The translations under genes were made by a program, and so were the position numbers. Positions 2 through 49,213 of a DNA stretch of 49,532 bases are shown here, one piece after another. The DNA comes from Candidatus Micrarchaeia archaeon. GTDB taxonomy: Archaea > Micrarchaeota > Micrarchaeia > CABMEP01. The stretch lies in assembly GCA_038886535.1 (NCBI GenBank), contig JAVZXS010000005.1, positions 1 through 49,532 on the forward strand, given 5' to 3'. Position 1 is the first letter of the stretch. Every line of letters starts with the position of its first letter. The notes beneath the pieces were generated by a model. It made no database searches. It saw only the letters and a list, made by a program, of their open reading frames with translations, and was not told where the DNA came from.

Positions 2-2236
2 CCTTCAGGAACAGGATTTTCTGAAACATGTACGGACAATGATGGAAATGGAATCTGTGATGAAGCGTATGAACTCGCAACAAATAACATAGATTTCTTA
101 CCATTGGCAGTATACACCGCTCCTTCTGACACCACACCTCCATCAGTTCAAATCCTTTCACCATCAAATAACACATGGCATAAATCAGAAGTCAATGTAA
201 CATTATTAGCTACAGATGATACATCAACACAGATATCATGTAAAGTATATCTAAACAACAATAATGTAGAAAACCTAACATTATTAAATAATTCTCCATT
301 AACAATATTTAGATCATTACCAAATGGTAAAAATTATGTCTATCTTAACTGCAGTGATCAGGCAGGAAATTCAATTATATCAAACCTAATTACAATATAC
401 TTTGACAATGAAAATCCAACTATTTCATCCTTCACACTCTCTTCAACAGTTGTTTATGTAGGTGACACAATAACATACAACTGTACAGCATCTGACAATT
501 CAGAATCCTATGAAGGATCTGTTAATACGGTTGTAACAGGAATTGATACATCATCGGCAGGAACAAAAACAGCAAGATGTACCGCAACAGATACTGCAGG
601 AAATTCAATATATGAAGAAAGAACATACACTGTTAATCAAATAATTCTTCCGCCATCTGGTGGCGGCGGTGGAGGATGTTCACCAGTATGGCAATGCAGT
701 GAATGGACTGAATGTTCAAAAGAAGGAATAAGAACAAGAACATGTATTGACATAAACAACTGTGGTACAACAACAGGTAAGCCTCCAGAAACAGCAGCAT
801 GCATATATGCATGCATGCCTGATTGGAGATGTTCAGCATGGTCAGAATGTTCACCATCAGGAATACAAATAAGAACATGCATAGATAATAATAATTGCAG
901 TCTACTTCCTCCATCCACATCTAGATTCTGCTTATACATACCTAAAGAATTAACAGCAAATTCAGATCAAACAGATCTTAATACCATTTCAACAATCCAA
1001 TCAAACTTTGTTAACCTATTCCAATCATTAGAAGATAAGGACTATAATAAAGTAGAATCTTTCTTCTCATCTGCAATCGATCAAACAAACTTCCTATTAA
1101 GAACATCACCAACTACAAACAATCTAAATATCTCACAAACAGTTATAAACAACGGATTACAGTTATCAGACTCTTTAATGCAGGAAGGTCAATTCTCTTC
1201 TTCTTCAAATATTCTTTCAAACATCTCTTTCACAATCCCATTCTTATCACAGATTGATGCATCTTATGCAAACAAACTAACCAATTTATTGCTTCAAAAG
1301 TCCAGTTTATTCTTCTCAGCAAACAAGCCTGATGAATTAATTTCCTTCATTAATTCATTAATTCAATCACTAAAACAATCATTCCAATCACAATTCAAAT
1401 TAATTGATGAACTACAAAGAAGCAGATTAGATCCTGATTCATTATTAAGATTAAATGAATTAGGAACATCTGTTCAAAGCATGTCATCTGCTCTCTCTGA
1501 TTTAGACGACGCATCAGAAATAATCCTTCAAGCATCAACAGAAACTAATAATGAAAAGAAATTCCAACTTTCATCTCAATCATTGAACCTTATCCAGCAA
1601 TCAATGCTTAAATTCCCTGAAATAAACAGAATCCTATCTTATTCAGTTGAACAAGATCCTTCTGAAATCACATATCAATCAATCATTTCAAATATTCCAG
1701 AAGATGAAAGGCAAAGATTAGAAGAAATGAAGAATTCAACTGATTCAGAAAAGCTGACAGTTATGAAATCAGTATTCAGCTATTCATTAAAGAATGAAGA
1801 ATATACAGATAAAGAAACAAACATTACAATCATTAAGCTTTCAGTTATCTCTCCATCCCAATTAGACAACTTAACAATATACGAATACATACCTAAAGGA
1901 ATCTCTATATCAGACATTCAATCTCCATACAACTTCACAATACTTAATGAAGATCCAATAATACAATTCAACTTAGGATCAGCTGCATTAGGTGAAACAA
2001 AATCAGTAATCTACACAATCAATAAGAAACTTCCATCCTACTCTTCCCAATCCTATTCAATCGGATTAATACATACAGGAATTCCTTACCTACCAACTCC
2101 AGAAGAAATAGTATTCTCAGATTCAACACACAACATAAGAGTAATAGCAGCAATCCTAATAACATTATTTATCTTATTAGAATTCTATCTTACAAAGAAA
2201 TCAACTCTTCCTAGATTTAAGTTATTCAAATATTAA
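2..2236 (+). CDS. Large cell-surface protein, 5'-truncated by the window edge: NosD/CASH-type tail motif, Ig-like domains, two Cys/Trp-rich TSP1-like repeats, helical region, C-terminal TM anchor
   Basis: The frame is open from base 2 (PSGTGFSETCTDNDGNGICDEAYELATNNIDFLPLA..., the D.DGNGICD...N.D..PL motif that follows archaeal beta-helix domains). DTTPP/DNENP Ig-like starts, a Gly linker, WxCSxWxECS..G...RTC twice, and a hydrophobic C-terminus IAAILITLFILLEFYL followed by basic residues. Confidence 0.8.
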   Translation, partial: PSGTGFSETCTDNDGNGICDEAYELATNNIDFLPLAVYTAPSDTTPPSVQILSPSNNTWHKSEVNVTLLATDDTSTQISCKVYLNNNNVENLTLLNNSPLTIFRSLPNGKNYVYLNCSDQAGNSIISNLITIYFDNENPTISSFTLSSTVVYVGDTITYNCTASDNSESYEGSVNTVVTGIDTSSAGTKTARCTATDTAGNSIYEERTYTVNQIILPPSGGGGGGCSPVWQCSEWTECSKEGIRTRTCIDINNCGTTTGKPPETAACIYACMPDWRCSAWSECSPSGIQIRTCIDNNNCSLLPPSTSRFCLYIPKELTANSDQTDLNTISTIQSNFVNLFQSLEDKDYNKVESFFSSAIDQTNFLLRTSPTTNNLNISQTVINNGLQLSDSLMQEGQFSSSSNILSNISFTIPFLSQIDASYANKLTNLLLQKSSLFFSANKPDELISFINSLIQSLKQSFQSQFKLIDELQRSRLDPDSLLRLNELGTSVQSMSSALSDLDDASEIILQASTETNNEKKFQLSSQSLNLIQQSMLKFPEINRILSYSVEQDPSEITYQSIISNIPEDERQRLEEMKNSTDSEKLTVMKSVFSYSLKNEEYTDKETNITIIKLSVISPSQLDNLTIYEYIPKGISISDIQSPYNFTILNEDPIIQFNLGSAALGETKSVIYTINKKLPSYSSQSYSIGLIHTGIPYLPTPEEIVFSDSTHNIRVIAAILITLFILLEFYLTKKSTLPRFKLFKY
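677..931 (+). repeat. Two tandem Cys-rich TSP1-like coding repeats inside the surface protein
   Basis: CSPVWQCSEWTECSKEGIRTRTCIDINNC versus CMPDWRCSAWSECSPSGIQIRTCIDNNNC; similarity is also visible in DNA (gaatgttca...ggaata...aagaacatg). Confidence 0.75.
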
Positions 2237-8729: not shown

Positions 8730-9158
8730 TCACTTTATTTTCCATACCATATAGACAGCATCTTCACCATCAGGATAAACGCCCTTAAATATTTCAATCT
8801 CCTTAAATCCTAACTTTTTATAAAAATTAATAGCATCATTTCCAGCCCTGACATGCAAAGAAATCTCTTCTAATTCAAACTTTTTTATAAGGTATTTTAT
8901 TAGACTTTTAGCTACTCCCTTTTTTCTTTTTTCTTTCTTTACAGCAATTGATCTGATATATCCTTTTTTCGGTTCAATCATTTGTAGAATAATATAACCG
9001 ATAATTTTTCCATTCTCTTTAGCAACTAAAAAACTATCTTTACATGTTTCAAAAAATTTCATAAATTCCTCTTTGTCCCAACTATCTTTTTCGAATGATT
9101 CTTTTTCAATTTTAATTATTTCGTCTATATCTTCCCATTTAAAAATTTGTATTTCCAT
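8730..9158 (-). CDS. RimI/Ard1-like GNAT N-acetyltransferase
   Basis: IEKESF..W, SIAV...KRKKGVA, LHVR..N.AINFYKKLGF, YPDGEDA..M. Confidence 0.9.
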   Translation of the reverse strand: MEIQIFKWEDIDEIIKIEKESFEKDSWDKEEFMKFFETCKDSFLVAKENGKIIGYIILQMIEPKKGYIRSIAVKKEKRKKGVAKSLIKYLIKKFELEEISLHVRAGNDAINFYKKLGFKEIEIFKGVYPDGEDAVYMVWKIK

Positions 9159-9208
9159 AATAAAATTAAAAACATAATTTTTAAATAGTTTATTTTATAA
9201 ATTAAAAC

Positions 9209-9919
9209 ATGAATGAATTGGCCCGTTCGAAAAATAGAATAGTAGCTGGAGTAATAGGTGGTTTTGCAGAGTGGCTAAACATTAATCCAACAGTTTTAAG
9301 AATTGTATCATTAGTAACTGCACTTCTTTTTATGATTGTTGGATTTTTTTATTATCATCTATTCGGTGCAGCAGCTGTATTGCTGACTTTAATATTTATG
9401 TATTTTCTTTTAGCAATAATATTACCAGAAAGAAGTAATCTCAAGATGGAAAACAAATTGGAAAATAAAACAGTAACTAACAAGGCTGAAAAGAAAAAAC
9501 GTAATTATGTCGGTATAGTAAGAAGAGGATTTGCATTTATAATAGATCTAATACTATTTAGTTTGTTGGTGCTTATTGCAGGAATATTATTTTTAGGCTC
9601 TAGAGGAGCATATGATATTGTTTTTTTCATTTTATTGGAATTTATACTTTTTATGGTAGTATTTTTTGTTCCTACATTGAAATCAGGCCAGACTCTAGGT
9701 AAATATATATTAAGTATTAAGATAGTTGATAGAAATGGAAAATTGCCTAAGGCTGAAAAACTATTTTTAAGGGAGTTTGTAAAGTCATTAATTTTATTTT
9801 TATCAGACTATTTATTTTTGATACCTCTTATTTTAAGTGCATTTCTTATATGGTATGATAAGAATAATCAAAGTTTGCACGATAAAGCAGCAGATACTTA
9901 TATAATTTCAGCTAAATAA
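9209..9919 (+). CDS. PspC-domain / RDD-family fusion membrane protein
   Basis: N-terminal LARSKNRIVAGVIGGFAEWLNINPTVLR (PspC); C-terminal RRGFAFIID...GQTLGK...LR...QSLHDKAADT (RDD). Confidence 0.85.
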   Translation: MNELARSKNRIVAGVIGGFAEWLNINPTVLRIVSLVTALLFMIVGFFYYHLFGAAAVLLTLIFMYFLLAIILPERSNLKMENKLENKTVTNKAEKKKRNYVGIVRRGFAFIIDLILFSLLVLIAGILFLGSRGAYDIVFFILLEFILFMVVFFVPTLKSGQTLGKYILSIKIVDRNGKLPKAEKLFLREFVKSLILFLSDYLFLIPLILSAFLIWYDKNNQSLHDKAADTYIISAK

Positions 9920-9964
9920 TTATCGTATCTTAATTTTTATATATTTTAATAACTTTAATGTTTT

Positions 9965-11368
9965 ATGCCAACAAAGCCAACACGTACAATGAGCGGAGTA
10001 ACTCCAATAGCAGTGGTGACAGAACCAAGGCCATGTCCACACGGCACCTGTGTTTATTGTCCAACTCTTGGTGTTCCACAATCATATACTCCTCTTAGTC
10101 CAGCAATTATGCGTGCAAAAGAACTAAATTATGATCCTTATAAGCAGGTTTTAGCTAGAATGAAATCTTTTGAGGTAATGGGTCATCCTACTGAAAAGAT
10201 AGAGTTAATTGTAATGGGGGGAACATTTACTGCTTATCCGGTTGATTATCAATATTGGTTTATCAAAAGATGCTTTGATGCAATGAACGGGATTGAAGCA
10301 AGAGATTTAGAAGAGGCAAAGAAGATTAATGAAAAAGCAAAGCACAGATGCGTTGCTTTGTGTATAGAAACAAGACCTGATTATTGTAAAGAGGAAGATG
10401 TTAAAAGAATGCTTGAGCTAGGTGCAACAAGATGTGAGATAGGAGTCCAGCTTCCAGACGATCATGTGTATAAATTAACTAAAAGGGGACATACAGTTAA
10501 AGATGTGGTTGATGCAACAAAAAGATTAAAGGATGCTGGATTCAAGGTAGGTTATCATCTTATGCCTGGATTGCCTGGTTCAACCATTGAAAATGATCTT
10601 AAAAGATTTAATGAAATATTCTACGATGAAAGATTTATGCCAGATCAGTTGAAGATATATCCAACGCAAGTGATGAAAGGGAGTGAACTTGAGTTATGGT
10701 ATAAAGAAGGAAAGTATAAGGCTTATTCGGATGATGAGATTCTTTATTTGCTTAAGGAAATAAAGCTCATGGTTCCTAAATGGGTAAGAATAATGAGAGT
10801 GATGAGGGAAATCCCACCTTCTTTCATAACAAACGGAACAAGGAAAATAGATATGCGCAATCTTGTTTATGATGAATTAAAAAAGGAAGGAAAGACATGT
10901 AAATGCATACGTTGTAGAGAGATAGGGTTTTCAATAGTTAAAGGAAAGATAAGCCGAGAGGAAGTGCAAAAAATAAGTTCAGATGATTTATATCTTATTG
11001 TTGACAAGTATCGTGCATCGGGAGGCCAGGAATATTTTATATCTTATGAGTATAAAGATTTCTTATTTGGATTGTGCAGATTAAGGATTATAGATGGTAA
11101 TAAAGATTTTGCATTTATAAGAGAATTGCACGTTTACGGCCCAGAATTAAGGATAAAGAGTCCAACTGAATCTACAAGCACTAAAAAGGCAATTCCAGTA
11201 CAGCATTCCGGCCTTGGGAGAAAATTGATGCAAAAAGCAGAGCAAATTGCAAAGGAAAACGGAATAAAGAAATTATTGGTAATCAGCGGGGTAGGGGTAA
11301 GAGAGTATTATAGAAAATTAGGCTACGAACTTGAAGGTCCATATATGGCAAAAGTATTGACAGAATAA
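9965..11368 (+). CDS. elp3: Elp3 tRNA U34 carboxymethyltransferase (radical SAM + KAT), short form
   Basis: RTMSGV, CPHGTCVYCP, MGGTF, IETRPD, PDQLKIYP, IRELHVYG, QHSGLGRKLM, VISGVGVREYYRKLGY. Confidence 0.96.
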   Translation: MPTKPTRTMSGVTPIAVVTEPRPCPHGTCVYCPTLGVPQSYTPLSPAIMRAKELNYDPYKQVLARMKSFEVMGHPTEKIELIVMGGTFTAYPVDYQYWFIKRCFDAMNGIEARDLEEAKKINEKAKHRCVALCIETRPDYCKEEDVKRMLELGATRCEIGVQLPDDHVYKLTKRGHTVKDVVDATKRLKDAGFKVGYHLMPGLPGSTIENDLKRFNEIFYDERFMPDQLKIYPTQVMKGSELELWYKEGKYKAYSDDEILYLLKEIKLMVPKWVRIMRVMREIPPSFITNGTRKIDMRNLVYDELKKEGKTCKCIRCREIGFSIVKGKISREEVQKISSDDLYLIVDKYRASGGQEYFISYEYKDFLFGLCRLRIIDGNKDFAFIRELHVYGPELRIKSPTESTSTKKAIPVQHSGLGRKLMQKAEQIAKENGIKKLLVISGVGVREYYRKLGYELEGPYMAKVLTE

Positions 11369-14388: not shown

Positions 14389-14407
14389 GAAACATTTATA
14401 TATAAAA
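14389..14407 (+). promoter_or_regulatory. BRE/TATA promoter, probably giving a leaderless mRNA for the PolB-like gene
   Basis: gaaacatttatatataaaa, with the TATA box about 25 nt before ATG 14424. Confidence 0.55.
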
Positions 14408-14423
14408 ATAATGTCAAAATATC

Positions 14424-17400
14424 ATGCATAATAACGATTTGAAAGAGAATAATCATATTATTAGAAATCAATCAATAGATTCGCAAGAGGATGATTCGTT
14501 TTGGAATGATACTCCTTTAGATGAAGAACCTTCTTTCGAGGCAAAGCATAATGAGCTTCATTTATTTTCAGAAGAAGAGGAGAAGAAAAAGATTCAGCCT
14601 TTCTGGTTTGTTAGCTATGTTGGTTTTGAGGAGTACGAGTCAAAAAGGAATCGTCTGATTATGAATTTAAGAAGATGGTCTTTGTCCTCTCCTGAAACTG
14701 TTACTGTTTATATTAATCATCCGATTACTATTTCAACAAGTCCTTTTTATGATTACGATTCGTTATATACTTATCTTGAGAAATTGAACAAATCCATGGA
14801 TAAGACATACAAGATTACATGTTATCTCTCTTATGCAGATAGAGATAAAAAAACAGAATTAGAAAAAAAATTTCCTGATTTTGAATTTGTTATTGACAAT
14901 ATCAAATCATCAGTTGTTAATGCAACGGTCCCATGCGAAAAAAGGACATTGGATAATTTTGAAAAGCTAGGCTTCCAAACAAAAAACATTAACAAGTCGA
15001 TAAGGAGACAGTTGGGCTGGATGTATAAAAAAGTAAAAATTTCAAGCGAACTAGAATACATCTTTTCTAAGATTAAGGAGCTTAATGAATTAGATTCTAT
15101 TTTGATTGAAAAGATCTCTAAATTTTATGGAAAAGATTCAAAACACTATGATAAAATCTTGGTTGCAAAGATAACTAGAGCAGTCAATGATTTTCGGCAT
15201 TTTTATTTAGAGGGCAATAAGATTTCAGATTTCTTAACAGAGAATAGCGGAATATTAAGGGGTAAGCACCCTATCGTATATAGAATTTTTAATTCAAATG
15301 AAAGTTTTGCGAGAGAATTAGAAGAAATTGGAATTAAATTCGGAAGCCTTAGGTTCTCTCTTGATCTTGCTGCAAAATCTTTGAATAACCAGAATTCAGT
15401 AATTTACAATTGGGATAACGAGCAATATGAATTAGTGTTGCAACCTAAAAGCGAACTAAATCCATATGTGAAAGGAGGGACAGAACCCGAAGGAATGCTT
15501 TTGACAGATGAAAGAATTCCATATGTTTGTTGGAAGTCGCTTTCAACATGTTTCATAGACATTGAGAAACCAATGTGGAAGACAGAAGAGGAAAGAAAGA
15601 TAATGCAGGAAATTTCAGAGCTGCAAGCAGAGCTTGCAAATAAGAATTCAACTAGAGATCCATCTGAGATAAACGAAAAAATTCAGGAATTGAGTAAGAA
15701 AATGGTAATGAAAACAAATCAGTCTGGAGATGTGAACCTACTTGAGGACAGGTATAAAGAGCAGATTTCTAGAGTAATGATACATCTAAGAAAAGAAGAC
15801 GGTTCTATGAAACGATTTTATTTCAAGCTCAGAAATACTGCAATCAATGATGAAATAAAAGAGATAAATGGATTCACAGTCCTTTACTTTGACACAGAAT
15901 ATGAATTACTTAATGCAGTGATCAAATTCATCAAGCAGGAAAAACCTTACAGAATTGTAGGCCATGTTATACCTTACGATCTTTCAGAATTAAGAGACAG
16001 CGCAAGAAAGAATAAAACTGAACGTTTCGAAATAGCAGTAAAGAAAAAGGAACCAAGGCTTTGGAGACGTGATTTTTACCAGAAGATATCTCTTGCAGCG
16101 CAGGAAATACTTGATACACATCGTTTGGCTTCTGTTTGGTTCCCATATCTTAAGATGAAACCATTTGATCTTTCGCATAAGCTTGCAGATGTTGCAAATT
16201 TCATATATTTGCAGAAAAAGCGAATGTGCATTAAAACAGTAATGGATACAGAATTTCACAAAATAGCAACGCATAATGAACTTAAAGAATTAGAGATAAT
16301 GGCAATAAATGGAAACAAGGATGCAGAATACAAACTCGACTTTTACTCTACTCACGATATCGATCCATTGATAGAGATATTCGATTTTGAGCCTACACTT
16401 AAGCTTTTGTATAAGGCAGCGGCGATGGCACCCCATGTTCCAATAACAGATGTAGCATTTTCTCCAACTTCAATGAACGAAATATTTCATCTTCGTGAAT
16501 GGAAGGTCCGCCATACTCAGTTGCATTACGGCTACAAACAAAAAAAGAGAGAGGATGAAAGGCAGATTTTCAAAAAGAGACTTAACGAATACATGAAAAG
16601 GCAGTTGATGGATGAGGGAATACCTCAAATAAAGCCGGGATTATATTATGATGCATATATGACATACATTCCATTAGAACTTATGTTGTCATCAACTTTC
16701 TTTCCTTCTCAACCAGAATGGAGTTCATATTTCAAATCATTACATTATGATCCTATAATAAAGATAGCCGAACTTCAATATCCAAAATATTTCATGAGGC
16801 AGAATATACATGTTGACTACTACTTATACAGGAGAGAAATGGACATTTACAGAGAAATTTTGAGGCTACTTAATATATCTAAAGACGAGGCAACGAACCT
16901 GATGCAGAAGTACTATGTAGCTGTTGCAAAGGCAGACGGTACGGCAATTGGAACTCGAAGTAAAAAAGAGTTCGTCAAGCAATCTTTAGTTAGACAGTAT
17001 TATGCTACCTATGAAACTGTTAAGGATAAGTTTAGATCATTTTATATATCATTAAAAACAAAAGACAAAAAGGCAAGCAGAAAGATAAAGAATCACATAA
17101 GAAAAGGAAGCACAAGAAGAGAAGATAATCAGCTTACGTTTAATTTCGTTAATTTCTTTGAAAAAGAAAATAGCGACATAATAAAGCTCTATAACCTTCC
17201 AAGCGATTTAGAGTCCACTTTAGAAGAATCGTCAAAAGAGAAATTGGATAGATTCAAATCACAATTTGAACGTCTTATGAAGATAAATGATAAGATTGTT
17301 TCAATATTAGCCAAGTCTGAATACTCAGATATTACTGATAGGATATCAGCAGAGAATATGGTATTTTTATTCAACCAGTATATGCGTGCAATGCATTACA

Positions 17401-36929: not shown

Positions 36930-37682
36930 TTAATGTTCGAATATACTACCTACAAACATAATAAGTAGAATACCTATAAGTAGTACTGCAAGTTGTATCG
37001 CAGATTCTTTCTTGTTTGTGGTTATCTGCAATTCAGGTATTAAATCTGCAGCTGCAATATATATAAAGTGTCCTGCAGCTAATGGAAGGAGAAATGCAGT
37101 AATGCTTTGAAATGATACATCAAGAATCAGTATTACCATTGCTCCGATCATTGCAGTTAGTGCAGTAAGAAAATTAAATGCAAGTGCAGTCCATTTGTTT
37201 AAACCACTGTATAGAAGAATTCCAAAATCACCTATCTCCTGCGGAATTTCGTGCATCATAATTGCAATTGTTGTTACTATTCCTAAGGATGGGTCTGTCA
37301 GATAAGCAACTGCAATAACCATCCCATCAATTATATTATGTACTCCGTCCCCGATTATATTTAAATAAGGAAGGGCTTTCTTTCTTTCTCTATGTTTACA
37401 TTGTTTATTGTGACAATGATGCCATAAAATAAATTTTTCTAGTACGAAAAATAAAAGAAATCCTACAAGCACAAGAATCATTGCGGTTTTTGTTTCCATT
37501 ATTTCAAATGATTCAGGTATCAAATCCAAGAATGCTGCTCCAAGCAACGTTCCAGCAGCCAAGCTTATAAGAATTGAAAGGCTTTTTTCTACTGTTTCTT
37601 CTTTAAAATAAAGTGTAAATATTCCGATCAGTGACATTAGACTTACAATTAATACAGAAATAAGAACTTCAAACACGACCAT
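36930..37682 (-). CDS. ZIP-family divalent metal transporter
   Basis: AAGTLLG.AFLDLIPE, His-rich loop WHHCH, DGVHNIIDG, HEIPQEIGDF, FIYIA..DLIPEL. Confidence 0.94.
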   Translation of the reverse strand: MVVFEVLISVLIVSLMSLIGIFTLYFKEETVEKSLSILISLAAGTLLGAAFLDLIPESFEIMETKTAMILVLVGFLLFFVLEKFILWHHCHNKQCKHRERKKALPYLNIIGDGVHNIIDGMVIAVAYLTDPSLGIVTTIAIMMHEIPQEIGDFGILLYSGLNKWTALAFNFLTALTAMIGAMVILILDVSFQSITAFLLPLAAGHFIYIAAADLIPELQITTNKKESAIQLAVLLIGILLIMFVGSIFEH

Positions 37683-37740
37683 AGATAAATCTGCAAAATT
37701 AGATTTATAAATCTTAAAAGGTATGGATAATTAAGGTGGG

Positions 37741-38085
37741 ATGTTGGCATTAAGTTCACAGAAGTTTGGCAGAACAGAAAAAGAGGAGAAAAAAATGAAT
37801 GCACTTTTTAACAGATTAAATGAAAAAGAGAAGAAGCTGCTAGATGATTTGTCAAAGAAGTCTAAGCTGCCAAAAGAAGAAATCGCTGAATTTCTTTTCT
37901 ACAACAGCGCAACTCAGTATGCAATAGATAGGCTGAAGGACCAGAGACCTCAGCATTCACTAATCTTAGAAGAAATTTCACAAAGAATTTCAGAATTAGG
38001 TGACTATAGAGAAATAAAAGAAGAATATCTTTCACTTGTTGAAAAGATAAGAAATCCAGAGAATTGTAAAGAGTTAATAGGATAA
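37741..38085 (+). CDS. Hypothetical protein
   Basis: 114-aa ORF with upstream tttataaa TATA and SD aggtgg. Confidence 0.6.
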   Translation: MLALSSQKFGRTEKEEKKMNALFNRLNEKEKKLLDDLSKKSKLPKEEIAEFLFYNSATQYAIDRLKDQRPQHSLILEEISQRISELGDYREIKEEYLSLVEKIRNPENCKELIG

Positions 38086-38210
38086 AATCCTTTTAGAGTT
38101 CTGCTTAACAGCTTCTAAAAATCCTACAAAGAGAACTTTAATGAGAAAGAAGATTTCTACAAAGCCTCTATAAAGAAATATTTATATATATCTTTTGCAT
38201 TAAATTTTAC

Positions 38211-39671
38211 ATGAAAGAAAATAAGTATTATGAACCAAATAAAAATTTGTTTTCAAAATCTAATCAAAGTAAAAATTCTTCTATTATTTGGAGTTCTCTT
38301 TTTTTATCAGCTTCTTTAATCTTTTCTTCTCCAAGAATTGGTAATGCAGATTATGATAAAGCAGGTTTTTGTCCTAAAGGAAGCAGATTGTATTTATTTT
38401 CGCTGCAGTCTGGTGAGACATGCAAAGGTGAAAAATTCGGTAAAGACCTTTGCTCAGAATGCAGGACCAAAGATGGAAGAGTGCTGAACACATCTATTGA
38501 AATCATGCAAAAAAAGGTTGAAAAGGGAATCAATTCATCTAATTCTAAGGAAGGAAAGAGATACACATCAAAAGAAGTGAAGATAATAAAGGAAACGTTA
38601 AGAAGATGGAATAAAGAAGAGCTTGAGAATCTGATCAAAAAGCTAAATGGAAATCTGAATGATGAAGAACGAACAATATTCAGAGGAGCGCTTGAGCACT
38701 GGCCAGACATAAAATATCATGCAATGAGACTTGGTATAGATCCAAGAATTGCATACTTAGTTGCAGTTGCAGAATCCAGATTTGTACAAAAGATAGGAAA
38801 GTCAGGCGAATTATCTCCAATGCAAGTAATGCCGGATACAATGGCATTGATGTTCAATAAGTATGGAAGAAGTGATGAGTACATAAATAAATTGATAAAT
38901 GAACAAAAAGACTGGAGGAAAGATACAACTGCTCAGATAATACTTGCGCTTTATTATCTAAGAGACGGAATAAGTACTGTAGCCCCAACGGATGTAAAAA
39001 TTGAGCGCCTTAAAGCAGAAGATCTCCTTATGATTTATCACTTTTATAATCGTGGCCATAACAAATATATTGTAAATAATTGGTGGCAAGGTGACAACTT
39101 TGCAACTTGTGTAAGCAAGTATCTCAGACTTTATCCAGAAATTGAAAAATTTATAGATGATTTTATACGTGTAAATAAAGAATCAGAATCAATAATCAGC
39201 AAGACATGGAATTCTTATTTTAACATTCAGAATAAAAAGAAAAAGGACCAACAGATGAAAGAAGTCAAAAAAGAAGAGAAAGTAAAGAACGAAGCTAAAA
39301 CAACCAATAAAAAAGAAATTAAGAAAGAAGAAAATGTCAAAAAAGAAACGAAGGATTCTGCTGTGATTACGAATAGTGGTGTAGTTACAAATAATAAGCC
39401 AAAGAGTGAAGACATCTTTAAATCAAGCTCCATTGCGAAAATAGTTCCAAGATCCAGTACATCAAGTATAAAATCTCAACAAAAAACAAAGGAAGAGGAT
39501 AAAAAGCAGCAAATTATGCGACACCCACATAAGAAACAAACTGATTCAGATTCAAAGAAAAAGGATGAAATGAAAAGCGAAATTGAAAAGTATAATGAAG
39601 AACTTGAGAGAATACGAAGTGTACTAAAAGAACTGAAAGAAAGACTAAATAATGATAATAAAAGCAACTAA
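38211..39671 (+). CDS. Exported SLT-family (lysozyme-like) lytic transglycosylase domain protein
   Basis: Signal-like IIWSSLFLSASLIFS..NA; four-Cys N-domain; LGIDPR.AYLVAVAESRF (catalytic ES), SPMQVMPDT (GLMQ.MP.T-like), FYNRG (YN.G); charged low-complexity C-tail. Confidence 0.75.
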   Translation: MKENKYYEPNKNLFSKSNQSKNSSIIWSSLFLSASLIFSSPRIGNADYDKAGFCPKGSRLYLFSLQSGETCKGEKFGKDLCSECRTKDGRVLNTSIEIMQKKVEKGINSSNSKEGKRYTSKEVKIIKETLRRWNKEELENLIKKLNGNLNDEERTIFRGALEHWPDIKYHAMRLGIDPRIAYLVAVAESRFVQKIGKSGELSPMQVMPDTMALMFNKYGRSDEYINKLINEQKDWRKDTTAQIILALYYLRDGISTVAPTDVKIERLKAEDLLMIYHFYNRGHNKYIVNNWWQGDNFATCVSKYLRLYPEIEKFIDDFIRVNKESESIISKTWNSYFNIQNKKKKDQQMKEVKKEEKVKNEAKTTNKKEIKKEENVKKETKDSAVITNSGVVTNNKPKSEDIFKSSSIAKIVPRSSTSSIKSQQKTKEEDKKQQIMRHPHKKQTDSDSKKKDEMKSEIEKYNEELERIRSVLKELKERLNNDNKSN

Positions 39672-39725
39672 ATAAAAATCAATCGAATTTAGCTGAAAAG
39701 ATTAAATCAGATTTTGGTGAAAATA

Positions 39726-40565
39726 TCAATTAATAGCTATCCATATTAAATAATGATCAGACATGTCTAAAGTTATATCCTTTTCAATCCCGTAGTTCAG
39801 AAATCTTTCAAACACGGCTGTGTTTATGATTATTCTGTCATACGCACAATCGCTTTTACCAACTGTAGTGTCTTCATCATCTTTTATTACCCAAATCCAA
39901 TCTCTGAAATCTTTTTGTGAAACGTTATAAAATGAACAATCTGCATTAAGATCTCCCATAACTATTACTGGATAGCTTACGTTTCCAATTAATTGTTGTA
40001 AATTTCTTATTTCATTGGGTGCGTCAGAAGGCTTTGCATGAAGGACATAAACGATAACCCAATTATCCTCTTCTAATTGGTTTTTAGCCGTTATATTTAG
40101 GGCCAATGGCGGTCTCTCCCATCTATTTTGAATATCTGGATTGAAATCCCATATATTGTTAATTATAATTTTGCTTTTGTTATAAATAACTCCATACTCC
40201 TCTTTTATATTAGTTCTCCCGGCTCTGCTGCTTGTAAAGCATAAGAACCCTTCTAATTTTTCACAAAGTCTCGCAAATGCGCTTCCATCCTCATCCCTTA
40301 TTTCCTGAATGAAAATAAGGTCATAACTGGATATCTTAGCTGCGTATTTATGCAAAAGAGTTTGGTTTTCAGCCTTTGAGTCTCCAAAGACCTGGAGATT
40401 CCAAGCTGCAATCCTAATACTGCTGTTTTCTCCGACAATTAAATCTGTATCAAGATTTGTTTTAGCTTTATCAGCAATATTTTGAAAAGAAATGGCTAAC
40501 AATAGCAGCAATATTATGATCAGAAAAATAAAACGAAGATTAATATGCAAGGGCGGTCTTTCCAT
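39726..40565 (-). CDS. Membrane-anchored DNase I-like endonuclease (EEP family)
   Basis: N-terminal TM; AAWNLQVFG, IQEIRD, KEEY, LHAKP, MGDLNADC, CAYDRI, SDHY. Confidence 0.9.
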   Translation of the reverse strand: MERPPLHINLRFIFLIIILLLLLAISFQNIADKAKTNLDTDLIVGENSSIRIAAWNLQVFGDSKAENQTLLHKYAAKISSYDLIFIQEIRDEDGSAFARLCEKLEGFLCFTSSRAGRTNIKEEYGVIYNKSKIIINNIWDFNPDIQNRWERPPLALNITAKNQLEEDNWVIVYVLHAKPSDAPNEIRNLQQLIGNVSYPVIVMGDLNADCSFYNVSQKDFRDWIWVIKDDEDTTVGKSDCAYDRIIINTAVFERFLNYGIEKDITLDMSDHYLIWIAIN

Positions 40566-42241: not shown

Positions 42242-42913
42242 ATGCAAAATATGGTAGTATTTGATGTAGATGGAACTTTGGTAAATACCCTTCCGCATGT
42301 TTATAAAAGCTATTGTCTAGCATGCCAAAAATTTAAGCTAAAGGAACCGTCACTTGAAATATTAAGAAAAAATTATGATCAATCAAATAAATTTAGAAAT
42401 ACTGCGAAGGCTATCGGTGTTCCTTTAGATTTAGCTGATGAATTTAATTATTGGGTTTATGAATTCTTTAAAAAAGAAATAAGAAAAAATAAACCTGAGA
42501 TAATACCCAATGTAATAAACGTTCTTTATGCTCTTAAGGCAAAGGACATTGATTTGCGTATACTTAGCCTTGAATTATATGAAAATACCATTTATAAGTT
42601 AGGAGAGAAATTAGTAAATGATGTTTTTTCTCAAATAATAATTCCGCATAATGGAAAATTAGAAGCACTTAAACAACTAAAAAATACCTCCAATACTAAA
42701 ATAATATATGTAGGAGATTGTGTATCAGATGGTGAAGCAGCGATTTCTGCAGATATAGAATTTATTGGTCTTGCAACTCAATACAGCTTTAGCGAAGAAA
42801 AAAATATGATTGAATTTGCCAAGAGGAATATTGAAAAAGCAAAGGTTACACTTTCTCATTTCCATATCATATCTGTTTACGAAAAAATGACAGAGAATGA
42901 TATGTATGGATAA
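42242..42913 (+). CDS. HAD-superfamily phosphatase
   Basis: VVFDVDGTLV motif I, ILS motif II, K motif III, YVGD..SD..AA motif IV. Confidence 0.88.
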   Translation: MQNMVVFDVDGTLVNTLPHVYKSYCLACQKFKLKEPSLEILRKNYDQSNKFRNTAKAIGVPLDLADEFNYWVYEFFKKEIRKNKPEIIPNVINVLYALKAKDIDLRILSLELYENTIYKLGEKLVNDVFSQIIIPHNGKLEALKQLKNTSNTKIIYVGDCVSDGEAAISADIEFIGLATQYSFSEEKNMIEFAKRNIEKAKVTLSHFHIISVYEKMTENDMYG

Positions 42914-43367
42914 TGAAAGTAAGAAAATCGAAAGGAAACCAGATTATCTGCAAGATAAAATAGAGAGGTTTGATAGACTAGAAACTAATCCGTTAGTTGA
43001 AAACAGTATTAAATCACAGCAACATTCTGTTATAGTCATTATAGATCCGAATCCTGCAGATGATAACTTTTATGAAAGCTTTTTTCCAGGAAATAAATTC
43101 ATTAAATTAATTTCCCATAATGATGGAGTAAGGTATGCAAGTAAGGCGATGGAGGACAGAACTCTTTCCGCGATTATTGTTGATGACGCTATTGAAAATG
43201 GAATGGCTCCACTTTTAGTCTCTTTATTTAAAGCTTTGTCAAAAAAGACAAATTCAGAAATAAATATATTCTTAACCTATAGGGGAAATATAAACATAAG
43301 AAAATATTCGGTTAAGCCTGATGTAATATTAAATAAAGATAATGGGAATTTCGAAATTTTTTATTGA
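42906..43367 (+). CDS. Stand-alone receiver (REC)-like protein with a charged N-extension
   Basis: VIVIID...SAIIVDD..ENG...INIFLT...DVILNK follows the REC beta1/beta3-Asp/beta4-Thr/beta5-Lys order. Confidence 0.55.
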   Translation: MDNESKKIERKPDYLQDKIERFDRLETNPLVENSIKSQQHSVIVIIDPNPADDNFYESFFPGNKFIKLISHNDGVRYASKAMEDRTLSAIIVDDAIENGMAPLLVSLFKALSKKTNSEINIFLTYRGNINIRKYSVKPDVILNKDNGNFEIFY

Positions 43368-43467
43368 CTAATTCTATTTTTATTAGCAATAGAAATTCTA
43401 TTCATAAGCCCTTTTTAGCTAGTATACAAAGCAAAAGATTTATATATAACATATTTATTAGATTATT

Positions 43468-43719
43468 ATGGGAATTGAGAATTCCAAATGTAATGAAGAT
43501 AAGCTTAAGAGGCATAACGAATACATAATAGAGGAAATAAAGAAAACCAAGGAATTTCAAGTGTATTCTAGAATTAAATTAATTTATGAAGATCTAATAA
43601 AAAAAGCAGATGATAAAAAGAAGGAAATATACACACATCAATACAACATAGCTAGAAATATATTTACTAAGAGGATAGAAATCTATAATCAAAGATGGAA
43701 AAAAATAGGGGAGGAGTAG
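43468..43719 (+). CDS. Hypothetical protein
   Basis: 83 aa; BRE/TATA aaaagatttatatat about 25 nt upstream; first gene of a tightly packed four-gene run. Confidence 0.6.
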   Translation: MGIENSKCNEDKLKRHNEYIIEEIKKTKEFQVYSRIKLIYEDLIKKADDKKKEIYTHQYNIARNIFTKRIEIYNQRWKKIGEE

Positions 43720-44166
43720 ATGGATTTTATATCAAAATATAAGAATAATCCAGATCTCTTAATAAGAGAGAAGATGAAGAAGCTTTTATATCTAGAGAGT
43801 AAGATGTTGCCGGATATGGACAAAATTAAAACACCATCTCAATTCTTCAAGGAAGTTAAAAGATTTGATCAAAGGAGAGATGATCTTGGTATAAGTATTT
43901 TCAGAGATATAATCAGCCTAGATTTTGCAAAGATAATTACACAAAATACAAATTTAGAATTGAAAGATGCATTTAGAATGGTAAAGGGATGTATAGATAT
44001 GCCTATGGCAAGAAAGCTATTTGACAGAGAAGCGGTTAAAGTTAAAGATGCAGTTTTGTTCCAATTAAATAAGGAGACTAGGGAAGAAATAGCAGACTCA
44101 TTCATTAAACAGATAAAGTCTGGAAAAAAGAAATTGAAATTACCAAAGAGATTTTATAATGAATAA
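43720..44166 (+). CDS. Hypothetical protein
   Basis: Abuts the previous stop codon; SD ggggaggag. Confidence 0.65.
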   Translation: MDFISKYKNNPDLLIREKMKKLLYLESKMLPDMDKIKTPSQFFKEVKRFDQRRDDLGISIFRDIISLDFAKIITQNTNLELKDAFRMVKGCIDMPMARKLFDREAVKVKDAVLFQLNKETREEIADSFIKQIKSGKKKLKLPKRFYNE

Positions 44167-44177
44167 TTGGTGATAGT

Positions 44178-44756
44178 TTGTTTGACGATATAAAGAATAA
44201 CATTGGTTTTTTCAAATATCAAAAGTATAATGGTAAAATTTTTGATTATCCAATTGCTGAAATTATTGATAAAAAACATCATGGTGTTATATATTTTTCT
44301 AAGATAAGAGTTGATTTCATAGAGTTCAATTACAATAGAAATGAAATAAATTATTATTTAGAGCCAATCGAAATAAAGTATACGGATTTATATGATAATA
44401 AAACTCAATTAATATGGAGAAGAGTAAAAAAGAGAATAGAGAATATATACTTTTATAAAAAAGCTATCTTAAGTTGGATGGATAAAGAAAATATAGATTA
44501 CTATTCTGTTATAGATTATGGTCCTTTAAGCTTAATCTCTAGAGAAAAAACCCATATACTTAATTTTGAAGATACTAAAAATTATGTAGAAACATCAGAC
44601 TTAAATAAAAATGCAAAAGAATTCATATCATCTCATAATTCAGAGGAAGAGATTAAGGAAAGGATAAAACTAATCAAAAAATCATTGCCTAAAAATAAAG
44701 ATCAAATAACAAAATCGATTATGAAAGAGATAAGAAAATTAAAAACCCAAAATTGA
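44178..44756 (+). CDS. Hypothetical protein
   Basis: 192 aa; TTG start with SD ggtga. Confidence 0.6.
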   Translation: MFDDIKNNIGFFKYQKYNGKIFDYPIAEIIDKKHHGVIYFSKIRVDFIEFNYNRNEINYYLEPIEIKYTDLYDNKTQLIWRRVKKRIENIYFYKKAILSWMDKENIDYYSVIDYGPLSLISREKTHILNFEDTKNYVETSDLNKNAKEFISSHNSEEEIKERIKLIKKSLPKNKDQITKSIMKEIRKLKTQN

Positions 44757-44768
44757 ATCTCTAAGCCA

Positions 44769-45347
44769 ATGTTAAAAAGTGGTTCTGTGAAATTTAGTGA
44801 TATGTATAAAAAAAGAGATGAAAATAAATTTAAAGAAAAAAAATTTATTTTTAGAAAAGAATCAATCGACGATGGAATAGGCAAGATAAAAGACGACAGC
44901 AAATCGAAAGAAGATAAAACTACAATTGATAACAAAGCAAATCTAAAAAGAATACTTTTTATTTCACCTTCTTTGGCAGAGCGTATATGTATTTTAAAAA
45001 ATGCTTCAGAAATTAATGTTTCTTTTTATACCTGTTCACACATTAATGAATTAAACACTAATAGAAGTGATCTAAACTTAGTTTTTGACGCAATTATAAT
45101 AAGCGATGAAGCTCTCGAAAAAGTTGATATGTTATCCGCTTCGAATTATATACATCTTATTAAAGAAAAATATGGACGGATTAATATTAAACCTCCTAAA
45201 ATTGTGCTGTTAACTGATTTCAAGCAGCGTTTCGAAACAAAATGTTTGCATCTTAATATTGATTGCGTCCCTGATTTCCTCTACAAAAAGATATTCAAAC
45301 GAGAGAATATAGAACAGATAATAAAAAACCTTGAAGAATCAAAGTGA
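44769..45347 (+). CDS. Degenerate receiver (REC)-like protein with a Lys-rich N-extension
   Basis: RILFIS...FDAIIISD...KIVLLT...DFLYKKIFKRENIEQIIKNL. Confidence 0.45.
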   Translation: MLKSGSVKFSDMYKKRDENKFKEKKFIFRKESIDDGIGKIKDDSKSKEDKTTIDNKANLKRILFISPSLAERICILKNASEINVSFYTCSHINELNTNRSDLNLVFDAIIISDEALEKVDMLSASNYIHLIKEKYGRINIKPPKIVLLTDFKQRFETKCLHLNIDCVPDFLYKKIFKRENIEQIIKNLEESK

Positions 45348-45415
45348 TTTTGGAAGGTTTGATGCATGATAATTTTATATATTTATTGGCCGATAAATAG
45401 TAAAGGTGGTTTGGA

Positions 45416-46546
45416 ATGGGAAGACAATATCTGAATATTTGGAATGCCTTACTTGTTTTTATAATGTTGAATCTAGTATCTGCATTCACTTTTGCACAAG
45501 GCCAGATTTCTCCTGGATCTTCTGGAAATACAGATGTTACAGATAAGCCTATGGTTACAAAAGATACCGGAGTTTCAGAAGACTTTATGGAAGGAATAAT
45601 GTCTTCTAATGTATCTTCAAGCAAAACTAATGAAAATAGCGCATCTGAATTTAATATAGCAGAAGTAGATGATATTTATTCAACTATAAAGTATGCAAAT
45701 GAAACAAGGATAATGCAATGCATAGATGAAGAAACAAAGGCAGAGATAATTAATCTTTACTTAAAATACAGAAATGCAGTGCAAAATAAAAACAAGGAAA
45801 TGATTCCTTCATTAAGGGAGGAAGCCTTAACTCTAAGGGAAAGAGTAATGGAACAGGTTTCCGGATGCAAGACAAATACAGTTCAGATAAGGCAACAGGA
45901 GCTTAATCAAGAAATGAGGCAAGTGGTTTCTACCTATGTTGAGAGAATCCAGAACCTGTCATCAATTAATGACACTCAACTAAGAAATCAAATAAGAGAA
46001 CAGATAAAAGAGGAGACAATGATGCAGATCAAACAGATTGTTGCAGAAAGAAAAGAAATTAACGCCGCAGATGTTTTAACAATTGCAACTGCAATACATC
46101 TGAATAGATCTGTTGCTAAACTTGGAGATGAAGAAATAAATTCAACAAACATTTCAATTAAAGCAAGAATAAGAGATAGGGAAATGAACATAACAAGAAT
46201 ACAAGAAAGATTAAAGATAGTGGAAAAAGACGCTGAAGCTGAGATAGAACCAACTGCAAATGTTGTTATAACTGAAAATGGAACAATGATAAATGATAAG
46301 AACTTATCTATAACTCCTGCTGAAATAAAAGAAAGACTTCAAGAGAGAATCAAAAATTCAGTAATGAGCAAATTACAGATAAAGATTGAAAATAATAAAC
46401 TAATATACAGTGCAGATCTCAAAGAAAACAGAAAGATATTGGGAATTATTCCAGTTACAATGGAAACCAGGGCAAAGATAAATGTTGAAAATTTAGAAGC
46501 TTTAGAAATTGAAAGACCCTGGTGGGCATTTATTACAACTGAATAA
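45416..46546 (+). CDS. Secreted/surface hypothetical protein
   Basis: Signal peptide ending VSA; helical middle; C-terminal KILGIIPV...EIERPWWAF. Confidence 0.75.
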   Translation: MGRQYLNIWNALLVFIMLNLVSAFTFAQGQISPGSSGNTDVTDKPMVTKDTGVSEDFMEGIMSSNVSSSKTNENSASEFNIAEVDDIYSTIKYANETRIMQCIDEETKAEIINLYLKYRNAVQNKNKEMIPSLREEALTLRERVMEQVSGCKTNTVQIRQQELNQEMRQVVSTYVERIQNLSSINDTQLRNQIREQIKEETMMQIKQIVAERKEINAADVLTIATAIHLNRSVAKLGDEEINSTNISIKARIRDREMNITRIQERLKIVEKDAEAEIEPTANVVITENGTMINDKNLSITPAEIKERLQERIKNSVMSKLQIKIENNKLIYSADLKENRKILGIIPVTMETRAKINVENLEALEIERPWWAFITTE

Positions 46547-48406: not shown

Positions 48407-49213
48407 ATGATATTTATGACAGAAAGAGAGGAGAAGATAATAAAGAAAGGAGAAAAGAAGGAAGAAAAGAAGCCTTCCTTATGGCAGAGAATGAAAAAAC
48501 CATTAGCTGCAGGATTGCTTGGTGCTTCATTACTTTTCAGTCCTGCAAAGAGGGTGGATGCTCTTCCTATTCTTGCCACAGCACCCCCGCCTTATGCTGC
48601 TGCTGAAGTGGAAAACGATAAGCTATTGAAAGCAGGATGGAAGATCCTGCAAGAATATTCGGATGGAAAGTGTGGTAGTGAAGAAAAGTTACAAATTGCC
48701 AAAAAAATTTTCGAATCTGTCTACAAAAAGACAGGAAATCCAGTAGCTTTAGATTTAAAGGATGTTACAGATTATTATCTCGCTGTAGAGGACAGAACTT
48801 ATCATCAAACAAAAACAAGATTGTTAAATAGATTGAAATCAGTTGAAGAAAGATTAAAATCATATCCAGATGATATTCGTGCTTTCGATAAAAAACAAGA
48901 AACATTAAAGTCATTATTTGAGGCAGCATATAGTTTATACTTTGATAAAGAAATATATAGAGAATATCGAAAGAAAGATGAAATAGATCTTTATTACAAA
49001 GATGCAATTAAATTTGGAAAAGAATTGATTGAATTTGAAAAGGAATATTTAGAGAGTTTATTATCTAATTCAAAATTCAATGTGTATACTTCAAAAGGAT
49101 CGTTCGAAATTCCTAATACAGAAAGAAATGATGCTATAGAACACCTAAAAAAGGATCTCAAAGAAAACGAAAATATGTATGGGGAATTATTAAAAGAAAA
49201 ACGAAAGGATTAA
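48407..49213 (+). CDS. Hypothetical exported helical protein with a charged pre-signal extension
   Basis: EREEKIIKKGEKKEEKK precedes PLAAGLLGASLLFS..VDA; the start may be ATG 48416. Confidence 0.7.
   Translation: MIFMTEREEKIIKKGEKKEEKKPSLWQRMKKPLAAGLLGASLLFSPAKRVDALPILATAPPPYAAAEVENDKLLKAGWKILQEYSDGKCGSEEKLQIAKKIFESVYKKTGNPVALDLKDVTDYYLAVEDRTYHQTKTRLLNRLKSVEERLKSYPDDIRAFDKKQETLKSLFEAAYSLYFDKEIYREYRKKDEIDLYYKDAIKFGKELIEFEKEYLESLLSNSKFNVYTSKGSFEIPNTERNDAIEHLKKDLKENENMYGELLKEKRKD

Follow-up and report, generated by a model that had tools for sequence, protein, structure and literature searches.

A diverged, predicted exported GH23/SLT protein of a Candidatus Micrarchaeia archaeon and its candidate role against bacterial murein

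Lytic transglycosylase (SLT) domains, members of glycoside hydrolase family GH23, have been reported repeatedly from archaea of the DPANN superphylum. PMC8204110 describes large extracellular murein-like transglycosylase proteins (fam00969) of Pace- and Woesearchaeota, with references to sightings of 2013 and 2015; PMC9723730 reports GH23 in Woesearchaeota and proposes predation on bacteria, PMC5864196 finds that three Micrarchaeota genomes encode a lytic murein transglycosylase, for which it proposes bacterial targets, and PMC10936187 makes the same point for three more DPANN genomes. The proposal of a bacterial wall as target is not new, having been published for DPANN, Micrarchaeota included, between 2013 and 2024. 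Archaeal peptidoglycan hydrolases of other classes kill bacteria, as shown experimentally according to the excerpt of PMC12352652. Here we analyse an SLT gene from a 49,532 nt stretch of a Candidatus Micrarchaeia archaeon (contig JAVZXS010000005.1, positions 1 to 49,532, assembly GCA_038886535.1), the whole of which we call the window. We find its product to be a diverged GH23/SLT lysozyme-like protein, predicted to be exported, and hold it on balance probable that it acts extracellularly by cutting the glycan strands of bacterial peptidoglycan.

The gene lies at positions 38211-39671 of the forward strand and encodes 486 amino acids (aa) followed by a TAA stop codon at 39669-39671. An earlier note on this DNA had given these coordinates exactly and had read in them an SLT domain with a catalytic glutamate, which is borne out by Pfam, hhalign, structural matches and an invariant Glu188; its positions for three SLT motifs are likewise correct (AVAESRF, aa 184-190; PMQVMPDT, from 38817; FYNRG, from 39042). 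The search with the Pfam SLT profile (PF01464) that it had suggested gave a match over aa 170-285 that is above the gathering cut-off, if marginally (21.9 versus 21.3 bits, E 1.4e-4), and in a six-frame search of the genome with this profile the protein scores 24 bits. Among 28 members of the family, 12 match Pfam SLT at E<=0.01, the best at 1.8e-8. For comparison we used 12 canonical SLT domains from genomes of the same archaeal class, in which residues E, S, G, Q, G, Y and N are invariant; hhalign aligned the 28-sequence family profile to this set with a probability of 97.2% (E 4.4e-11, 91 columns), placing Glu188 on the glutamate of the ES motif and SPMQVMP on GLMQLMP.

Across the 28 family sequences E188, G199 and Q205 are invariant, and W164, D177, G196, T210, Y276 and Y279 are nearly so. 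E188 and S189 end helix 178-189 and align with the invariant E42-S43 of the canonical domains; the serine is replaced by T, N, D, A or G in relatives. The downstream motifs of SLT type follow in order, SPMQ with the invariant Q205 and YHFYNRG with Y276 and Y279; their counterparts Q60, Y106 and N107 are invariant in the 12 canonical sequences, and the letters around these residues differ from those in the family. Glu188 (codon gaa, 38772-38774, forward strand, in AVAE-S), invariant in the family and aligned to the ES glutamate of canonical SLTs, is the predicted catalytic acid.

An AlphaFold (AF2) model is confident over aa 52-328 (block-mean predicted local distance difference test, pLDDT, mostly 70-94) and poor over aa 1-51 and 328-451; aa 101-325 (38511-39185, forward strand) are modelled as an all-helical, lysozyme-like GH23/SLT catalytic domain. 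The Foldseek comparison, which the earlier note had proposed as a further check, gave a divided answer: the top rows are uniformly GH23 and lysozyme-like (Ralstonia chitinase, Slt, goose-type lysozymes, MltE, MltF, MltC and phiKZ gp144; probability 0.94-0.99), but none of them reaches E<=0.001. Since the Foldseek E-values are weak, we relied on the uniform identity of these top rows together with VIA-align, which compared the model against 48,161 chains. Its ranks 1-11 are all lysozyme-like wall enzymes, and eight GH23 or wall-enzyme chains score Z 8.1-9.3 over 132-161 residues (Tse3 and Slt, 9.3; MltF and the GH23 chitinase, 9.1; MltE, 8.8; Slt70 and MltC, 8.4; gp144, 8.1). In a feature search of the ESM Atlas, SLT clusters made up 22 of the 30 matches listed, the best with a score of 0.94. 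Judged from sequence and model together, the protein contains a real, but diverged, GH23/SLT lysozyme-like enzyme domain.

The genome bin (1.14 Mb, 88% complete, 0.25% contamination) was searched for the genes of peptidoglycan synthesis; Mur_ligase_M, Transpeptidase (penicillin-binding protein, PBP) and FtsW/RodA (SEDS) were not found at this completeness, in agreement with the premise of the earlier note that archaea lack peptidoglycan. As no peptidoglycan-synthesis genes were found, remodelling of an own wall is unlikely and the substrate likely lies outside, most plausibly bacterial murein. The chemistry is predicted from the residues that follow Glu188: none of the acidic ones is invariant among the 28 sequences, E200 being conserved among the closer 15 only. 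The Ralstonia chitinase and the goose-type lysozymes are hydrolases that use a second acidic residue, with two Asp in goose lysozyme. As the family has no conserved second carboxylate after Glu188, lytic transglycosylase chemistry is the better candidate: Glu188 would protonate the MurNAc-(1,4)-GlcNAc bond (MurNAc, N-acetylmuramic acid; GlcNAc, N-acetylglucosamine) and the C6 hydroxyl of MurNAc would close a 1,6-anhydro ring, in place of attack by water.

Several results weigh against murein as the substrate, or against too firm a reading of the domain. The Pfam SLT score barely exceeds its cut-off, all Foldseek E-values are 0.056 or higher, and VIA-align Z values of 8-9 are only moderately above the background for helical models; a phmmer search of PDB sequences with the single protein found no match at E<=1, and a family profile built from the alignment of 15 relatives found among them only coiled-coil noise in the tail (E 0.87-7.7). 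A search against NCBIfam returned nothing meaningful. Pfam finds only SLT and a sub-threshold DUF445 in the protein, and thus no LysM, PG_binding, SPOR or other wall-binding domain. AnmK, Amidase_2, Amidase_3, M23 and NlpC/P60 were not found in the genome, which leaves no visible set of partner enzymes and no route for the use of anhydromuropeptides. The K-rich tail of the protein, described below, is undistinctive in an AT-rich genome with a generally basic proteome, the rest of the protein having an isoelectric point near 9. Moreover, a GH23 chitinase, which is not a murein enzyme, is among the best structural matches in both Foldseek and VIA-align, and all cultivated DPANN, including cultivated Micrarchaeota, grow on archaeal hosts according to the abstracts consulted.

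Some of these same observations would favour a GH23-fold glycanase for a substrate other than murein, such as chitin or chito-oligosaccharides, GlcNAc glycans of an archaeal host (S-layer N-glycans, exopolysaccharide) or biofilm matrix, which would likely serve to reach or attach to an archaeal host. Besides the archaeal hosts of known DPANN and the lack of a murein-binding module in Pfam, the Ralstonia GH23 chitinase is the best Foldseek match (E 0.056, probability 0.99) and shares the leading places in VIA-align (Z 9.1), and the family stands far from mainstream SLTs, with 20 cluster representatives in 1.84 billion, none of which was reached directly from bacterial SLTs. We nevertheless regard such an enzyme, the main rival to a murein-cutting one, as unlikely: the set of motifs E-S, MQ and YN-G is that of the family-1 lytic transglycosylases, the structural neighbours are mostly murein enzymes, and no invariant acidic residue after Glu188 is available as the base that a hydrolase of GlcNAc polymers needs.

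The earlier note held the gene to be archaeal, and the contig agrees: it is chromosomal and carries genes for TFB, Trm1, RNase HII, a PolB relative, an Elp3-like radical-SAM protein, KaiC/RadA-type ATPases and three aminoacyl-tRNA synthetases (Pfam), with a GC content of ~0.32 throughout and a tetranucleotide correlation with the genome bin of 0.993. Orthologs at 90, 81, 77 and 62% identity are all named Micrarchaeia or Micrarchaeota. Among 14 close homologues, the five that bear organism names are all Candidatus Micrarchaeia or Micrarchaeota, and only one of the 14 is annotated as a lytic transglycosylase; one distant family member is labelled 'uncultured archaeon'. A pattern scan of species-representative genomes, based on the 15-relative alignment, retrieved six loci, all from Micrarchaeia, Micrarchaeota or an uncultured archaeon. 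Likewise, in hot-spring metagenomes from two studies, a 6-kb stretch is covered in all of its 30 bins by contigs of related strains, which also run across both borders of the gene, a result in line with the gene belonging to this genome, the point for which the earlier note had asked for read coverage. Of the further runs that supply these contigs, two belong to another study and one to the same study; the Logan contigs are short, none spanning the whole gene.

The idea that the gene is of bacterial or phage origin and came into the bin through misassembly or contamination would find some support in a second, canonical SLT in the same bin, on a short contig that resembles a bacterial-type mobile element. 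To this stand opposed the position of our gene, which lies 38 kb from the start of a 49.5-kb contig rich in archaeal core genes, its synteny with five other genomes of the genus, the archaeal names of all named relatives, GC content and tetranucleotide use that fit the genome, and the bridging of both gene borders in independent runs; we give this explanation almost no weight. The synteny within the genus, a TATA spacing shared with neighbouring genes and purifying selection on the core (both described below) make misassembly very unlikely, and the same holds for contamination.

Incidentally, the contig with the second SLT (C17, 11,253 bases) encodes it at 38-562 of the reverse strand, as a protein of 174 aa with a signal peptide; the protein reaches 80 bits with PF01464. 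Judged by eye, the genes around it are a VRR-NUC-like open reading frame (ORF), an excisionase-like helix-turn-helix protein, an XRE/ImmA-like pair and a sigma-like ORF. By its look this contig may be a bacterial-type mobile element or phage, and it may belong to an organism other than the archaeon.

Transcription of the gene appears to start from a signal of archaeal type. An A-rich stretch is followed by the TATA box TTTATATA (38181-38188; whole element 38172-38188, forward strand) 30 nt upstream of the ATG, and the promoter string gaaatatttatata quoted in the earlier note is present at 38175-38188. The octamer TTTATATA is not enriched in the AT-rich window, with 12 copies versus 8.15 expected, a number reached in 16 of 100 shuffles. 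TATA-like motifs in the window concentrate 20-30 nt upstream of start codons, with 10 in this bin versus 1-3 in each other bin, and six genes have a TATA-like box at 27-30 nt from the start (TATA-to-start stretches 9131-9158, 9180-9209, 9936-9965, 14395-14424, 37682-37711 and, for the SLT gene, 38181-38211). The position of these motifs and the spacing common to the six genes indicate that the SLT gene is driven by the same type of signal as its archaeal neighbours. The 30-nt distance between TATA box and ATG suggests a transcript that is leaderless or has a very short leader, and the 27-30 nt spacing of the six genes suggests that the transcripts of this organism are mostly leaderless.

The catalytic domain is preceded by an export-type N-terminus and a small cysteine module and followed by a charged tail, three features that the earlier note had read from the sequence and that hold on closer analysis. 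The first 46 aa (38211-38348, forward strand) comprise a K/N/S-rich n-region (aa 1-23), a hydrophobic stretch at aa 24-40 and then PRIGNA|DYD, as seen from hydropathy and alignment; aa 24-40 are the only hydrophobic segment of the protein, small residues occupy positions -3/-1, no lipobox was found in the N-terminus and the model has pLDDT <50 over aa 1-46. We predict that this region is a Sec signal peptide or an N-terminal membrane anchor, so that the protein would cross the membrane by the Sec route and would either be released after cleavage behind GNA or stay anchored.

Residues 47-100 (38349-38510, forward strand) are predicted from alignment and model to form a small three-stranded beta module (strands at 58-64, 74-76 and 80-86; pLDDT 66-81) with C54, C71, C81 and C84, the four cysteines being nearly invariant among the 15 relatives. 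In distant members of the 28-sequence alignment C81 and C84 are gone together and C54 and C71 are kept; this paired loss fits two disulfides better than a zinc site, and thus suggests that the four cysteines form two disulfides. The disulfide-stabilised module would then, with the helical domain, form the groove for the substrate.

After the catalytic domain, aa 326-445 (39186-39545, forward strand) are a K-rich, low-complexity segment predicted to be disordered (pLDDT mostly <50), whose length and sequence differ between strains, with indels both between relatives in the alignment and between hot-spring strains in metagenome contigs. The tail as a whole (aa 326-486) has 42 K+R versus 28 D+E, and in each of the 13 members whose tail has >=20 aa the part after aa 325 carries a net charge of +6 to +14. 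We considered the cationic tail as specific evidence for binding to a bacterial envelope, and set this aside as weak, the remainder of the protein being equally basic. The search of PHROGs gave a single weak match in the tail, between aa 413-481 and phrog_1625 (E 6.4e-4; 'bacteriocin production or immunity'), which was judged compositional or coiled-coil noise. The C-terminal aa 446-486 (39546-39668, forward strand) show the 3-4 spacing of an amphipathic helix of about four heptads (M454, I458, Y461, L465, I468, L472, L475, L479); the model has a helix at 447-485 (pLDDT 69-86), and a C-terminal helix is kept in most relatives. A coiled coil for oligomerisation or docking is thus predicted here. 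Flexible tail and coiled coil could bundle copies of the enzyme, or dock it on the surface of the archaeon or on an anionic bacterial envelope.

The family is small. A phmmer search of 1.84 billion cluster representatives returned only 20 proteins at E<=0.001, and the family profile matches nine of 61 genomes, including the one studied here: six of the six other genomes of the genus, seven of eight of the family and, weakly (E 3.9e-15), one genome in a second family of the order, with no match in 51 genomes from the other 18 families of the class sampled. PF01464, on the other hand, has matches in 97 of the 301 genomes that represent the class, in 53 of 169 when those of high quality are taken alone, and in 59 of 140 genera. 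This profile detects only three of eight genomes of the host's family versus seven of eight with the family profile, and the class-wide count of 97/301 is therefore a lower bound. As a control, PF01464 matched eight of 14 named genomes, all eight of them bacteria; two archaeal control genomes that the Mur ligase search had picked up were not matched. Profile searches thus indicate that SLT domains are common in this archaeal class, and that the 486-aa protein represents a small, lineage-restricted subfamily.

Within the genus, the pairwise ratio of nonsynonymous to synonymous substitution rates (dN/dS) is 0.08-0.15 for the core (aa 166-325) versus 0.65-1.08 for the tail; the catalytic core is under strong purifying selection. 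Compared with the closest genome (L006), the flanks and the 5' two-thirds of the gene are 94-99% identical, except for a 200-nt bin at 89% over the Cys module, whereas positions 39330-39930 fall to 69-85%. Conversely, positions 39130-39730 are 97-100% identical to a more distant genome (L003) that is 79-95% identical elsewhere. By these sequence comparisons the gene is a recombination mosaic, its part for the tail and coiled coil (39130-39930) resembling the L003 allele. Still within the genus, L010 (G004:C15:72-1079, reverse strand) has an allele of only 25% identity beside the same neighbours, with the Glu kept and one internal TGA in the profile match, and in L008/L012 (G003:C17:5604-6921) the gene is split over two frames near aa 200. 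The alignments thus depict a fixed catalytic core and surface parts that vary and are exchanged.

The broken copies bear on the idea that the protein retains the fold but does not cut, as a binding protein, for example a glycan-binding adhesin, or as a relic. The high divergence of the sequence and a poorly modelled loop (aa 192-200) beside the active site would suit it, as would the relative with the gene in two frames and another match with internal stops. It has only a slight chance in our view, given that Glu188 and Q205 are unchanged in 28 of 28 sequences, that the core evolves under the low dN/dS reported above and that an intact copy of the frameshifted variant exists (P0004).

In its neighbourhood the SLT gene is part of a gene order (361-aa ORF, ZIP transporter, 114-aa ORF, SLT, nuclease, histidine kinase) that recurs in relatives of the genus, the synteny of the SLT locus being common to five other genomes; it is lost beyond the genus, where relative L009 shares the SLT gene alone. 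The 114-aa upstream neighbour (37741-38085, forward strand) has no significant Pfam match and accompanies the SLT gene within the genus, adjoining it in five relatives by tblastn, the divergent allele of L010 included. In relative L005 (G005:C6:1-4170) the SLT gene is preceded by DNA that bears no relation to the ZIP and small-ORF context (~52% identity), so that synteny is broken there, and the SLT reading frame is open far upstream, for a total of 709 aa.

Downstream lies, in convergent orientation, a gene for a 279-aa protein of the Exo_endo_phos (DNase I-like) family (39726-40565, reverse strand; PF03372, E 7.3e-9) that begins with a hydrophobic anchor; synteny of this gene extends to L003, L005 and L006. 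Its sequence makes it likely that it is a surface or secreted nuclease, which would fit the scavenging of nucleotides by a reduced genome. The SLT and nuclease genes are convergent and therefore do not share an operon; as their pairing is also limited to the genus, we rejected a functional link between the two as evidence.

This context is relevant to a further role, that of a VirB1-like accessory of a machine for cell contact or transfer (a conjugation-like, VirB6-type apparatus) that would cut a local hole in the wall of the partner. Bacterial type IV systems carry dedicated SLT enzymes, and the tail and coiled coil could dock on such a machine. However, none of 47 ORFs in the window matches a type IV secretion family and the gene is outside any machine cluster, its synteny being instead with the ZIP transporter, the small ORF, the nuclease and the histidine kinase, and disappearing beyond the genus; we consider this role quite unlikely.

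Elsewhere in the window, the stretch 42897-46546 has its lowest GC (0.25-0.29) and contains five ORFs of 148-376 aa without a Pfam match, the last of them starting with a signal-like segment; the block is a candidate for an island that is lineage-specific or was acquired. An ORF open at its 5' end (2-2236, forward strand, 744 aa) has an internal reading of 710 aa that contains 16 Cys, matches Ig-like domains weakly and ends in a hydrophobic anchor, and a 268-aa ORF (48407-49213, forward strand) has a K-rich n-region and a hydrophobic segment built as in the SLT protein; both likely encode surface proteins, as far as their sequences tell.

Returning to an exported enzyme that cleaves bacterial murein, its biological use would be the breaching or grazing of bacterial walls, in antagonism, predation or nutrient release. 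The earlier note had gone further, in opposing such a target to the usual archaeal host; this is beyond the evidence, since killing or grazing bacteria is compatible with an archaeal host. In a bolder version, which we hold to be rather improbable, the hot-spring lineage would live or prey on bacteria, not archaea, and the enzyme would be a dedicated wall-breaching tool on a long, flexible cationic stalk bundled by the coiled coil, working with a conjugation-like VirB6-type apparatus and a porin-like barrel, its fast-evolving, recombining non-catalytic parts recording an arms race with bacterial envelopes; if true, no DPANN archaeon before it would have had a bacterium as its partner.

Murein-cutting domains recur in DPANN genomes despite the archaeal hosts of cultivated members, and an attack of these enzymes on bacteria can be tested directly. 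The 486-aa protein is a handy test case, being small and from a thermal habitat, with a single catalytic domain and a clear E188Q control. If it cuts murein, the few anti-bacterial weapons known from archaea would be joined by a transglycosylase; if it instead leaves murein intact and acts on another glycan, an inference repeated in the literature without test would be corrected.

Compared with the family-1 lytic transglycosylases (GH23/PF01464; Slt70, MltC and MltE of Escherichia coli, Slt, MltF and MltD of P. aeruginosa, gp144 of phiKZ), the archaeal protein is predicted to have the same all-helical, lysozyme-like fold and has the same catalytic Glu, which closes a helix and precedes a Ser, with the MQ and YN-G motifs after it in the same order. 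It differs in coming from a genome in which no genes for murein synthesis were found, in the 21.9 bits on Pfam and the lack of a sequence match in PDB, and in reading SPMQ and FYNRG where those enzymes have GLMQ and AYNAG; added to the core are the four-Cys beta module, a disordered K-rich segment of ~120 aa and the C-terminal coiled coil, and, unlike those enzymes, the protein has no lipobox and no superhelical or LysM modules.

Two other groups come close in structure. The GH23 chitinase of Ralstonia sp. A-471 (PDB 3w6b-3w6f) and the goose-type lysozymes (1gbs, 153l) are among the best structural matches, with 14-16% identity, and the archaeal family lacks an invariant counterpart, after Glu188, of their second acidic residue. 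The joint first rank in VIA-align goes to Tse3 (PDB 4luq; Z 9.3, 161 residues, root-mean-square deviation 3.3), which P. aeruginosa uses as a type VI muramidase effector, a lysozyme-fold enzyme delivered against the walls of other cells; with 9% identity the likeness is of fold only, and among the window ORFs near the SLT gene there are neither immunity nor secretion-system genes.

Nearest in kind are the SLT proteins already described from DPANN. Going by the excerpts of PMC8204110, PMC9723730 and PMC5864196, they share with ours the domain, the superphylum, the predicted secretion and the proposed target in bacterial murein, but those of Woese- and Pacearchaeota reach up to 3,000 aa, versus 486 aa here, with a different architecture. 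The excerpt of PMC12352652 defines its targets by a catalytic Pfam domain together with a cell-wall-binding Pfam domain; our protein, having only SLT and the sub-threshold DUF445, does not combine the two, and surveys using that definition would therefore not list it. What sets the present case apart is the small size of its subfamily, the four-Cys module, the cationic tail that varies between strains, the predicted coiled coil at the C-terminus and the mosaic make-up of its alleles.

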